Below, piece by piece: positions 427 to 4,673 of a DNA stretch of 64,000 nt. The translations under genes were made by a program, and so were the position numbers. Position 1 is the stretch's first letter. Every line of letters begins with the position of its first letter. The stretch is from assembly GCA_963665095.1 (NCBI GenBank), contig OY762069.1, positions 3,680,001 through 3,744,000 on the forward strand. Direction: 5' to 3'. This DNA comes from an uncultured Desulfobacter sp. Its GTDB lineage: Bacteria > Desulfobacterota > Desulfobacteria > Desulfobacterales > Desulfobacteraceae. Under the pieces are notes generated by a model. That model was given only the letters and a program-made list of their open reading frames with translations. It was not told where the DNA came from and did no database searches.

Positions 427-2870
427 CTATTTCCAATCCCCGGTCACTTGAAATGCAGCCCAATAAAAAGGATGATTAAATTTTGTATTGGATGATTTCT
501 GGTTGATGGACATGCCCCGATTTATCAGGTTTTGCGTATCTGTCTGTATGCCTAAAAGGGATAGCTGAGCTAATTGAAGTGCTTTGGTCGGCCGCTGACC
601 CGTCAACAGGTGTTCATAAAAGTTAATCATCAGCAAGGATGTGGCCTCATCGGAAACCTTCCAGAGAGAGGACATCAAAGCTGGTGTACCCGCATAGAGC
701 ATACCCCGGGTAAGGCCGACCACCTCATCCCCGACACTGATTTCACCAATTCCGGTTTCACAGGCTGACATAGTGACAAAACGAGCGTTCAGGGCAACTT
801 TCATTATTTCCCAGGCTTCAAGCCGGCCATCCGTATGATTGTCCCTGGCCAACAGCATTGCACTGCGACTCGGGCTTTGCCGGTTAAACTCACCATGGCA
901 GGCCAAATGTACAACATCTGCCCGGGGGGCTTGTTCTATAAACGCAGATTCTGTGGCATCCGAACCTGTCAGTATTGTTACTTTGGGATTGCTTTTACCC
1001 TTAAAAAACAGGGCACCTAACTGGTTGGCCTCTTGTGCCGCCCCCGGAAGGGCCCACTGATCCTCCGTCATACCCGGTAGTGTTACCGAAAGATCCGGAT
1101 TTCCAAAAGCCAGAAAGCTGTCAATGGGGCGGCCTGTTCTTTCCCTGCAAAAGGGTAAGATTCCGGCTGCCGGCAGAATTGAAATTTCAGACCGTTCAAT
1201 CAGCCATCCCTGACCGTCATGCAGGGAGGTGAACGGCAGGGTGTGCAATGGCCCGTGGGGAACGATGACCACGCGCCGGGGCAGCCCTTCAGGAAAGGCA
1301 TCCCCGAACAAGGCTTTGTATAGGGCCCGGGCTTTGGGACTGGGATCACCGGTACCGGTGCAGATACTCTTACGAAGCTCAGCAACCATGGCTGAAATTC
1401 TGCGCTCCGGCTGCGCAATGTGATGCACTTGAAGGCCGGAGGTATTGCCCACAAACATCAGCCCCTGATTTTCATTAAGCATAAATTCCACCAGGGTAAC
1501 ATTATCGAAGTAGGGCTTCATCGTGTTCCAGGAGGGGGACTGGGCTGTGACAAAAGAGGCCAGTTCCTTATCACTGGAGGTTAATGCATCCTGGGCGTTT
1601 TGAACACTTCGATTAGCCGCCTCCCGGCTTTCAAGGCTCTTTTTACCACCGTCGGCAAAAACAGATCCAATGGAAGATTTAAATACATTTTCGGTCCGGA
1701 AAGCCAGATAACTGGCCTCCACTTCCTTGTTTTTTCCCAGGGTTTTGCCTTCCAGCAAATCTGCCAGAGCCCGGGCTTTTGATTTTTCAACGATGGCAAA
1801 TGCCTTTTCTATTTCACCATGCATGGCATACCTGATGGCCAATCGTTCATAAGGACGGCCACGGTCTTTTAAAAAATGCCGCTTATAGGAATCTTTCTGC
1901 AAGGCGCTTCGTTCGGTTTCAGCGATGCTGACTGCCTTTTCATAGTGTTCAACAGCCGTTTCAGGCTGTCCCAGATTTTCATAACAATCACCCAGGGCAT
2001 CATGGGCAGTCCATAGGTACTCTCCGCCCAGGGCCGGTGATTGGTGTATGGTTTGGCAATAGGCTTCCAGCTGGGAAGCCGCAGCTTGATAGCTGCCTTC
2101 GAGATAATCTGCATAACCAAAGTAAAATTGTTTTTTGGTTCTGAAATAAAGATTGCTCTCGTTCATTATGCTTCCGGGCACATAAAAGGCTTCTGTGCCG
2201 CCGACAGCCAATATCATGGGAAATGCCACAACCGTCAGGGCAGCCACGCCCGTATCCCCTTTAAAATCTTTTTGATCAATATGTTCTGCGTATTTTCTCA
2301 GCAACCTCGGATCTTTCAGGTGAACGCCAAGGTTCAGCAACCCGGCGTTATAGCCTGGCTTGGCCCACTGCCACTGCTTTTTACTCATGCACCGTTCCAT
2401 CTTCGCCATTGAGATACGGATATCTTCCAGTGCCCTGAAGGTTTTAAGGTCATCGCCATCCAGCAACGATCGCTGCACCATCAGCGGGTGAGCCACCCCA
2501 TAGCTGTAGGAATACCGGCAATCCTCTAGAGTGGGATCGCTGCCATCCGTCATATCCATGGAGTACTCCATGGCTGACAAGGCTGTTTTCAACGCCCTGT
2601 CAAACCGTTCGATTTCACCGGTTTTCAAGGCCGATTCCAGATACGGTGTGATAACTTCCGGCATATTACGAAAATCAATTTGTATTACAATATCCGACCA
2701 GCCCCCTTTCACACTCCTGCTTTCCTGGTCCTTGAGAACATTTTCAATGTGGGCAATGAATGCATCACCGATCAGAAATACTTTTTCATGGTTTCCCAAT
2801 TGTGTATACACCCGCATCAAAGCATCTATCTCCTCTTGCCGCAGCTTTAAGGCCATTTGTTCGGGGGTCA
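427..2870 (-). pseudogene. TPR-CHAT (caspase-like) protease, 3' fragment of a gene interrupted by IS110
   Basis: TPR-like helices followed by a CHAT domain with VVHLACHG (His), TMSACETG (Cys) and C-terminal HPFYWAAFQVTG. Joins in frame to 4491..4673 when the IS is removed. Confidence 0.88.
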
Positions 2871-3009
2871 CCCATTAAAGGCCGGGTCAAGAGAAAAAAC
2901 ACCTCCCCGTGAAAAAAATTCCTTTTTTTCTTGACCCTCGCACTATTTGTAATTTTTCAAAATCGACAGCTTTTTTCCCTGTCCGCGCCTGTTATTTCGT
3001 CGTGTGGTT

Positions 3010-3290
3010 CACGGAAATGATCCGCACCAGTCACCCATCAGGTTCAAGGCAGATGTGTACCAGGCAAAATGCGTGGTACACGGCCCCTGGTCCGTTCGGA
3101 CCCCAGAAAATCTTCAGTGCCGTACCGTGGCTAATTGTTTGTTTTCAAATCTTATGGTTGTTAACCAACCCCTTACAGGCTCACGGCACAGGCGAATCAG
3201 GATATAAAAAACTGTGTGGCTGCAGCAGTTGCCAATCAAACCTAATGGTTCATACCAACCCCTGAAATGGTTCGCTGCTGCAGCCTTAAT
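3010..3290 (-). ncRNA. Putative bridge/seek RNA of the IS110 element (boundaries approximate)
   Basis: Stem-loops 3218-3285 and 3117-3189 carry AGGTTTGA / AGATTTGA plus GGGGT, matching the insertion target. ATGGGTGA (3031-3038) matches the IS end plus core. Confidence 0.75.
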
Positions 3291-4307
3291 TTACCGGCAA
3301 AAAAGACCTACCTCATCAAAGGGGATCTGATCCCGCATGATATAGTAGGATGCACGGCAAATTTTGTTGCTCAACGCTTTGGTGGCTACAATCCCGTTTC
3401 GTTTGGCATTTTTGCGCTGGAAAAATTTTCTTGCTTCCGGGCAATACCTTTTTGCAAAATTTGCAGCTTCTACATATGCCCAGGCAAGATACTTGTTTCC
3501 GTTTTTTGTATTATTTCTTCCTTTCTTCTTCCCATTGGATATTTTTTCACTTTTAACACAACGGCAATAGGAAGAATAGCATCCTACCTTGGCAAACCGT
3601 TTGATCTCGCCAACCTCAAGCATGATAGTCAGTGCCAGAATATTGCCGACACCCGGTATTGTTTTAAGCATTTCAAAGGCTTTTTTCATTTTAACCTGGG
3701 AAAGCGCCTGTCGTTCAATCGCTTTGATGGAATTACTCAGGTCCTTGATGGTCCTGATCTGAAGTGCTGCCATGAACCCCTGATTTGAATCAAACATTTG
3801 ATGAACCTCAGGTTCCTTCAATTTTTTGATCGCATTACCTGACATTTTTATGCCAAGTTGCCTTGTTACCATGCTTTGTAAACTCAAAATTTGAGTTGTT
3901 CTTTGCTGCACAAACAAAAGTCTTCGGCGTAAAATATCCCGGACAGCTCTTTCTTCCCGAGGATAAATGTAGCCTTCCGGCAGAATGTTTAACCGCCTCA
4001 TGTGTGCGAGCCAGAAGGAGTCCCACTTGTCGTCGGTATACTTGAGCCCTTCGTACTGTTGAATGGCTGACGGGTTGGCCAGATGAACTCTATAGCCGTT
4101 TTCCTCAAGGCCATCAACCAGCCAGTACCAGTTGTAGGTTGATTCTACCACGATACCTTCCAGATTTTGTCTGAACGGTTCCAGAATTTGAAGTACATCC
4201 GGCAAATTATTGTCAAGCCGTTTTCCAAATAACCGTTTGTCATTTTCATCAATGATTCCTACGTAATTATTGCTTGAATGCAAATCAATTCCAGCGTAGA
4301 GTTTCAT
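3291..4307 (-). CDS. IS110-family transposase/recombinase
   Basis: N-terminal YAGIDLH, IVVEST, KYTDDKWDS (DEDD RuvC-like); TIPGVG; C-terminal SEKISNG...KNGNKYL; GGAGG RBS upstream. Confidence 0.95.
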   Translation of the reverse strand: MKLYAGIDLHSSNNYVGIIDENDKRLFGKRLDNNLPDVLQILEPFRQNLEGIVVESTYNWYWLVDGLEENGYRVHLANPSAIQQYEGLKYTDDKWDSFWLAHMRRLNILPEGYIYPREERAVRDILRRRLLFVQQRTTQILSLQSMVTRQLGIKMSGNAIKKLKEPEVHQMFDSNQGFMAALQIRTIKDLSNSIKAIERQALSQVKMKKAFEMLKTIPGVGNILALTIMLEVGEIKRFAKVGCYSSYCRCVKSEKISNGKKKGRNNTKNGNKYLAWAYVEAANFAKRYCPEARKFFQRKNAKRNGIVATKALSNKICRASYYIMRDQIPFDEVGLFCR

Positions 4308-4489
4308 TTGGCACCTCCTAAATCCAAAGTGTTCTTGTTGAACTGGTACTATAGCAATCGTTGCTATAGTTAGGGAGGTGTCACTTTTTTTTCTAATTTG
4401 CGAGGACCTGCCATCATACGATTCTATGAAAAATATCTGTGATGACAGGTAGCTTTCGTTCCTGCTTTCGCCTGGCCTTTATATGATTA

Positions 4490-4673
4490 TCAAACCTTTT
4501 TCCATCTTTTTGGCCAGGGTCAAAGCCTCGGTCCATTTTCCGCTCATGGCCAATTCCTGGCTCATGGCTTTTAGCCGCTGTCCACGCATTTGCCCCCCGG
4601 CGCAGCCGGTAATAAGCATCAGGGCGGCCCCAAAAGAGGCTATTGAAAACAGGCAGTATCTAAAATTGTTCAT
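4490..4673 (-). pseudogene. 5' fragment (lipoprotein signal peptide) of the IS-interrupted TPR-CHAT gene
   Basis: GGAGGA RBS, then MNNFRYCLFSIASFGAALMLITGC (lipobox). Ends ...EKGL at the IS junction. Confidence 0.85.

Follow-up and report, generated by a model that had tools for sequence, protein, structure and literature searches.

The question raised by this locus is whether the non-coding 3' end of an IS110-family insertion sequence, found in a 64,000-nucleotide stretch of an uncultured Desulfobacter genome (hereafter, the window), encodes a guide RNA with two target-binding loops and, if so, what the second loop would do. An initial annotation, made from the sequence alone, had proposed such an RNA, with a first loop (here, loop A) matching the insertion site and a second (loop B) programming another class of targets. 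We addressed the question by comparing the element with its relatives, their insertion sites and the published guide RNAs of this family.

The element and its predicted guide RNA

The boundaries of the element follow from an empty site in a contig of DNA run X14, where position 2867 is joined to 4490, skipping 1622 bases, with three letters at the joint fitting both sides, and from a second copy identical to the window element (G000 3789450-3791084). Both full copies in the genome occupy the site reconstructed in the initial annotation, AAGGTTTGA followed by CCCC (AAGGTT-TG-ACCCC). The empty site and the motif shared by the two copies indicate that targeting is specific and oriented and proceeds without true duplication, as in IS110/IS1111 elements. 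The transposase matches the NCBIfam model of IS110 RNA-guided transposases, NF033542 (178 bits versus a cut-off of 140), and, weakly and below the cut-off, NF052498, and it combines the DEDD RuvC-like domain with the Transposase_20 domain and catalytic serine of IS110/IS1111. Its residues D93, D96 and S257 align to IS621 and ISCro4, with S257 at the position of the serine in the ESG of IS621; together with E55 and D8, the latter taken from the motif, these are likely the catalytic residues, an assignment for which the roles of the IS621 residues are in part presumed. The sub-terminal inverted repeats, at 11 bp, fall within the range of the IS1111 group (about 11-13 bp), and the non-coding region is, as in this group, longer downstream of the transposase gene (~420 nt) than upstream (~185 nt).

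Several further observations concern the genomic setting. The TPR-CHAT protein encoded by the interrupted host gene has an N terminus that looks, by eye, like a lipoprotein signal (LITGC). A degenerate third copy (G000 C1 4586877-4587776) has lost its left end and part of the transposase through an internal deletion whose joint is also present in runs X11 and X14; its loop A is intact, and the right guide of its loop B reads GGGAT. At G000 C1 ~3402390-3402485, a related element stops at the DNA copy of the left-donor guide, with ACCCC directly after, such that guide-coding DNA appears to have been used as an alternative right end; loose ends at window position 3030 occur in X11 and X14 too. 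An end-to-end joint of the element, as expected of a circular intermediate, was not found among the best 15 of 18 joints (four contig sets; contigs drop rare forms).

The 3' non-coding end encodes a predicted three-loop guide RNA of the IS1111 type, with two target loops and one donor loop, which we regard as real (Table 1). The predicted fold of the region is better than that of any of 100 shuffles (z = -3.0), and every motif of the proposed RNA lies where the initial annotation had placed it. The correspondence of loop A to the real insertion site is borne out by its exact left-flank match and by the empty site in the X14 contig. Loop B and the donor loop share a three-way junction, with loop A outside it, and in all three loops the right guide lies 5' of the left guide, the top-before-bottom order of IS1111 elements. 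Whereas the canonical bridge RNA has one target and one donor loop, two target loops are present here and three in 16 relatives.

Several details of the annotation required revision. The description of the two loops as duplicates holds insofar as both are target loops, but loop B has an insert of ~10 nt and shares its junction with the donor loop. The stem assigned to loop B, 3117-3123/3183-3189, does exist in the window copy as an alternative register, whereas relatives keep the one listed in Table 1. The core, given as TGA, is better read as TG: L108 and L215 have T after TG at the right junction, and the guides change along with it. The donor match near the 3' end stands, corroborated by covariation with the right end, and the second donor guide, reported as not findable, has now been located as GATTTTC.

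Table 1. Features of the IS1111-type element and of its predicted guide RNA (window coordinates)
Feature	Position	Strand	Basis or remark
IS1111-type insertion sequence	2871..4492	-	1622 bp with TG core counted once; empty site and identical second copy
DEDD recombinase/transposase, 338 aa	3291..4307	-	Pfam PF01548 and PF02371
Left sub-terminal inverted repeat	4471..4481	-	10/11 match to right repeat
Right sub-terminal inverted repeat	2876..2886	-	sequence reading
Left target flank AGGTT and TG core	4491..4497	-	copy flanks and empty site
Right target flank ACCCC	2864..2868	-	copy flanks and empty site
Host TPR-CHAT gene interrupted by the element	427..4673 (4673-4491 and 2871-427)	-	intact allele in X14
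Loop A, predicted free-standing target-binding hairpin, 68 nt	3218..3285	-	11-bp stem 3285-3275/3228-3218; stem covariation; guide tracks flank
Loop A right-target guide GGGGU	3258..3262	-	GGGGT 3262-3258; pairs with top-strand ACCCC
Loop A left-target guide AGGUU and UG core	3236..3243	-	AGGTTTGA 3243-3236; exact match to left flank 4497-4491
Loop B, predicted second target-binding loop in junction	3120..3191	-	stem 3191-3182/3129-3120; ~10-nt insert 3' of guide
Loop B right-target guide GGGGU	3168..3172	-	GGGGT 3172-3168
Loop B left-target guide AGAUU and UG	3146..3152	-	AGATTTG(A) 3152-3145; one hard mismatch at -3 to window site
Junction-closing helix, 5' strand	3192..3199	-	pairs with 3025-3018
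Junction-closing helix, 3' strand	3018..3025	-	pairs with 3199-3192
Donor-binding loop, predicted multibranch	3026..3118	-	hairpins 3102-3089 and 3087-3046
Right-donor guide GAUUUUC	3106..3112	-	GATTTTC 3112-3106; 6/7 to left end G-ATAATC
Left-donor guide AUGGGUG(A)	3031..3038	-	ATGGGTGA 3038-3031; covaries with right end

Conservation of the layout and covariation in relatives

We fetched 189 related loci (79 from genomes, 80 from metagenomes and 30 from the family), 144 of which have a tail of at least 150 nt. Loops A and B were both parsed in 131 of these 144 (71 of 79 clusters at 90% identity), and both target loops are present in 125 of the 130 loci with both donor guides parsed; loop B, on whose conservation the initial annotation had made its reading depend, is thus retained. 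Among the 13 loci without both loops, several are truncated or were missed by the parser although B can be seen by eye, and L003-L005, L057 and L120 represent deletions. The same layout was found in all 20 parsed distant loci (46-65% protein identity), that is, 13 Proteobacteria plasmid loci at 46-53% protein identity and seven phylum-level loci, and the IS1111 subgroup with this layout spans Desulfobacterota to Burkholderiales. The layout was not recognisable in L220 (33% identity), and L237, L239 and L240 come without a 3' end. In L238 (G365, 38% identity), loops resembling A and B can be made out by eye, with the A right guide matching the flank at 6 of 6 positions, which suggests that the layout may be older than the clade studied.

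The initial annotation had proposed a covariation check, and the stems do covary in relatives. In an alignment of 24 sequences picked for diversity, 31 of the 60 pairs of a hand-built structure changed on both sides, a count not reached in any of 500 shuffles (kinship ignored). Because this structure was built on the window sequence and on the alignment itself, the slide control is inflated. Unaided, RNAalifold placed the guides in pairs with neighbouring bases and overlooked the long-range helices, hence the use of a hand-built structure. Changes on both sides were seen at 10 of 11 pairs in the outer stem of loop A and at 8 of 10 in the loop B stem. The junction-closing helix is paired in 92.6% of cells, with one-sided changes only, and its support is correspondingly weaker. 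A search of Rfam returned nothing near the gathering score for this region, and a promoter scan was uninformative (4 sites versus 2.7 expected). Four RNA runs and four runs that are probably DNA share 7-12% of sequence words; contigs from RNA runs X5 and X6 come from relatives, mostly 90-95% alike, and level, strand and ends are not readable from these.

The donor guides covary with the element ends, as expected of a bridge RNA, in few events, with no tree control and with many left-end variants unfollowed. For the left-donor guide and the right end, ATGGA is present in both in 5 cases, in one only in 2 and in neither in 66. The right-donor guide, which is placed with respect to the apical stem just as the right-target guides are, follows the left-end variant TAACC/G (3/4 versus 3/70, p = 0.001) and carries GAAT only with TATTC ends (3/13 versus 0/61, p = 0.004), kin being non-independent in both comparisons; most left-end variants are unfollowed, 10 of 13 at one position. 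At the right junction, the core is CG instead of TG in 14 of 70 cluster-level records and in L190, with the donor guide keeping UG, which reflects either CG targets accepted by wobble or else variation of the end. The right end of L234 contains its terminal ~14 bases twice in tandem.

What the two target loops read

To compare the loops with their insertion sites, we used the 100 of 144 loci that combine a single A loop with a B loop and have a clean left flank, comprising 92 distinct sites and 60 clusters, with hand fixes to the B parses of L042 and L167 and to a spurious second A loop in L149. Counting one site per cluster (60 clusters) over left-flank positions -5 to -1, loop A matches at 259 of 300 positions (null 166) and loop B at 218 of 300 (null 173); where the two loops differ, the site agrees with A 47 times, with B 6 times and with neither 7 times. 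Over a transposase tree of 59 rows, from which L167 was dropped as a long branch, A tracks the target in independent pairs at -1 (7.0/9), -2 (9.1/16) and -3 (6.9/11), with median p = 0.016, 0.004 and 0.016, respectively. Loop B tracks it at -1 (6.3/9 independent pairs, median p = 0.03, ranging from 0.008 to 0.22 over random pairings), weakly at -3 (3.8/11 pairs, p = 0.125) and not at -2 (0/16 pairs), and positions -6 and -7 show no covariation with the guide of either loop. Target guides thus covary with target DNA in the manner of bridge RNAs. Taken together, the comparison makes it very probable that both loops read the target and suggests that A would be the site selector, with B reading the same site more loosely and strictly mainly next to the core. 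Many sites, to judge from the left flanks of L002, L003, L006, L013, L028, L029 and others, fall within short palindromes (GTCAA-N-AGAYTTGAC) that resemble REP-like hairpins.

The initial annotation had instead assigned loop B to a second (AGA) target class. In its general form, with B as an independent insertion guide, for example, a default for the common site AGAYT-TG-ACCCC while A explores, this reading appears unlikely. The B guide does correspond to the commonest site in the family (AGATT/AGATC, 41 of 60 clusters), the site of L086 fits B only, all three sites in G153 whose left end is of the L020 type match B exactly and the second A loop, A2, by wobble only (one tail assembled), and the B right guide of L217 spells a right flank other than A's. 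However, when pairing with wobble is scored at the 92 single-A sites, the advantage lies with A at 34 and with B at only one, 2 being mixed and 55 non-discriminating, which bounds the share of B among the 35 one-sided sites at 15% (upper 95% limit), and among the 27 cases with C in A but U in B at -2, only 2 sites carry T. The site has A at -3 in 6 of 21 cases when loop A has G and loop B has A, compared with 1 of 10 when both have G, a non-significant excess (p = 0.38) that is explained by the G-T wobble of A and that leaves room for a minor insertion role of B at some AGA sites. Sorting the flanks of the copies into AGG and AGA classes, as had been proposed, gave AGG for both full copies in the genome, with no AGA-class site among them, and likewise AGGTT for two copies in G063 (88% DNA identity), so that all four sites in the lineage are of the AGG type. 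Wobble-compatible empty sites of the two classes are about equally abundant in the genome (AGG 24, AGA 22; exact 12-mers for either guide, 0), and availability therefore does not explain two AGG sites out of two, although two sites prove little; moreover, guide AGGTT could pair with AGA sites by G-T wobble, so the guides of the window copy are not cleanly separable. Distant relatives also speak against a separate target class, B moving there to the same new site as A (see below). As a whole, the proposal finds little support.

The reading of the same site by B is most evident next to the core, where it matches the site at -1 in 50 of 60 clusters (null 26). In the near set, the B right guide tracks +5 (39/51 versus 33.8, p = 0.013; one of six positions tested). 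For the distant proteobacterial loci, we compared 11 distinct elements (after removal of the near-duplicates L223 and L218; 8 with a parsed left flank and 9 with a parsed right flank) with their own sites, taking for the right flank the better of two registers in observed and null scores alike. Loop A matches at 27 of 40 left and 40 of 45 right positions, above shuffled, and loop B at 24 of 40 left (null 13.8, p = 0.002) and 29 of 45 right (null 21.6, p = 0.009). In L215, L219, L224 and L228, A and B have both moved to the same new sequence, and the left flanks of L216, L217 and L226 are matched poorly by either loop.

Improbable as well is that B is a structural or redundant duplicate, serving the folding of the donor domain or the binding of a recombinase dimer and tracking the site through exchange with A. 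Consistent with this, the B left guide is more invariant than that of A (2 versus 18 changes at -2) and its right guide more degenerate: GGGGT is kept in B in 50 of 71 clusters, compared with 63 of 71 in A, B being degenerate in 21 of 71, and decay of the B right guide has occurred in some clades, including a five-copy Scalindua element. The loops also recombine, an inter-loop deletion in L120 and L193 (G141 C286) having joined A's 5' half with the 3' half of B to yield a two-loop form, and the tracking by B at -1 could in part result from such sequence exchange. Against a mere duplicate, B follows the site at -1 yet retains its own base at -2, whereas a conversion tract would usually carry both; the right flanks of L026, L038, L108 and L234 are fitted better by the right guide of B than by that of A; and in the distant elements the match of B to its own site exceeds that of shuffled controls. 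In the fused loops, the outer stem halves mismatch by eye; L057 has lost B instead. A multi-copy clade of Scalindua records (L049-L053, L059, L073) has a degenerate B right guide and has kept the left one. Self-occlusion, that is, folding of the B insert on the B left guide, was tried as an explanation of the slow change of that guide and rejected, native inserts performing no better than swapped or shuffled ones (p = 0.63/0.85 in 72 near elements and 0.50/0.88 in 17 distant ones).

Use of A and B in a single step, for instance, with the old flank and the new target held in a target-loop/target-loop complex for direct strand transfer, seems very unlikely to us. The two loops are reprogrammed jointly in the distant elements, and a direct-transfer route driven by target-loop RNA has been reported in the available text of one study (10.1101/2025.10.25.684509), but two target-loop dimers gave no productive IS621 excision complex in the part of another cited here (PMC13626964), and B tolerates hard mismatches at -3, in the window copy included. 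That the matches are due to chance, or that the region is not an RNA, is hardly credible despite the lack of an Rfam match for the region and RNA-run contigs coming from relatives only, given that the stems covary and that target and donor guides covary with DNA.

A possible division of labour and its relation to known systems

The interpretation we favour, on balance, is a three-loop RNA with a division of labour, in which A would pick the insertion site and B, with the donor domain, would serve another step. Loop A, about the size of a short seekRNA, would program insertion through 5 nt, the TG core and 5-6 nt, whereas B, which shares a folded domain with the donor loop, would read the same site with relaxed fidelity. 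The B and donor domain would most likely act on integrated junctions, in circle formation (excision) or right-junction transfer, with B accepting any site chosen by an A loop while A pairs with the new target; if B is relaxed in this manner, the element could leave a site whichever A loop had chosen it. The sequence comparison supports the layout, the four kinds of guide, tracking of the site by A and weaker tracking by B; from these, we infer transcription, recombinase binding, processing of A into an RNA of its own and the step that B serves.

Precedents for such a division exist, as far as the available texts go. In CazIS110-1, a target-loop-only RNA drives left-junction transfer only, the right-junction step and circles needing the full RNA (Sun et al., 10.1101/2025.10.25.684509); the two RNAs cooperate in different steps, as proposed here, but both come from one target loop, whereas the window family encodes two loops with guides of their own. 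It is established for the family that the recombinase acts as two dimers, one bound to a target loop and one to a donor loop, and that split loops work (PMC13626964), and excision of IS621 is described as proceeding without need for a target match (10.64898/2026.08.31.748434). Speaking against an excision role for B, flank replacement abolished circle formation in ISEc11, where excision thus needs a target match (PMC11187229). Later papers are divided over the mechanism of excision, and the descriptions from 2024 likewise differ as to whether a target-only seekRNA (PMC11187229) or a two-loop bridge RNA (PMC11208160) drives movement.

The window family shares features with both. Like ISEc11, ISPa11, ISKpn4 and ISPst6 (Siddiquee et al. 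2024, PMC11187229), it combines a DEDD transposase of 330-350 aa, followed by a long non-coding region, with sub-terminal inverted repeats and with the top-strand match 5' of the bottom-strand one, and the abundant 70-100 nt target-only RNA that IS1111 members yield resembles loop A. The seekRNA text available describes one target-match pair per RNA, whereas the RNA here has explicit donor guides and an additional target loop, joined by a third in 16 relatives of the window element. With the IS621 bridge RNA (Durrant et al. 2024, PMC11208160), the family shares target and donor loops with two guides each and a dinucleotide core, and with the IS1111 members in that paper, an RNA in the right end and donor guides in a multi-loop; the bridge RNA as described in the text cited has two loops, compared with three or four here, and differs in the reversed guide order and in the joining of the second target loop to the donor loop. 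TIGR arrays, in the part of the source cited (PMC12045711), are likewise tandem guide units linked to IS110-related proteins, but they form a repeat-spacer array for the Tas protein, in contrast to two or three folded recombinase loops inside an insertion sequence. The same A, B and donor layout is present in AP028203.1 (L218, 46% identity), which carries an ISGsu4-family label by record annotation. In the texts of the papers searched, we found no IS110/IS1111 RNA described as carrying two target loops; the diverse structures in Fig. 6d of Durrant et al. and in Evo-PIN Fig. S12 could include a three-loop layout.

A further extension of the layout is seen in the 16 loci (7 clusters) with two A loops, A1 and A2, the guides of which differ in all 16. 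Fourteen of these loci have a left flank, representing 10 distinct cases: the site matches A1 exactly in L063, L129, L153 and L157 and A2 exactly in L019, L095 and L142/L147, L020 and L025 fit by one wobble, and L141 fits neither loop. G152 contains five sites with a common left end, among them an exact site for A1 and another for A2, although a single copy has an assembled tail and two wobbles would let A1 reach the A2 site. These cases are suggestive of a natural multi-target guide array, and the idea of multiple targets fits the twin-A relatives better than it fits loop B. In three copies from G151 (L003, L004 and L005), both target loops and the right-donor guide have been lost and the right flanks differ, such that these copies would need a guide RNA in trans; a twin-A element, L023, resides in the same genome.

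Together with the division of labour favoured above, the twin-A loci allow a more tentative reading, plausible though somewhat doubtful, of a modular system, with an expandable array of free A loops, of which one or two are seen, and a single relaxed B/donor release module. If so, the family would represent a natural multiplexed bridge recombinase, with insertion and excision on different guides, and would unite the seekRNA and bridge-RNA models within a single element.

Because the target-only and target-plus-donor modules appear to be encoded separately, each with its own guides, the steps of transposition could be separated by changing single loops. Should B serve excision, its deletion or change could bias the recombinase towards insertion, and multi-site targeting would find a natural template in the twin-A relatives. 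For this IS1111 clade, computational surveys that assume a two-loop model may misassign guides.
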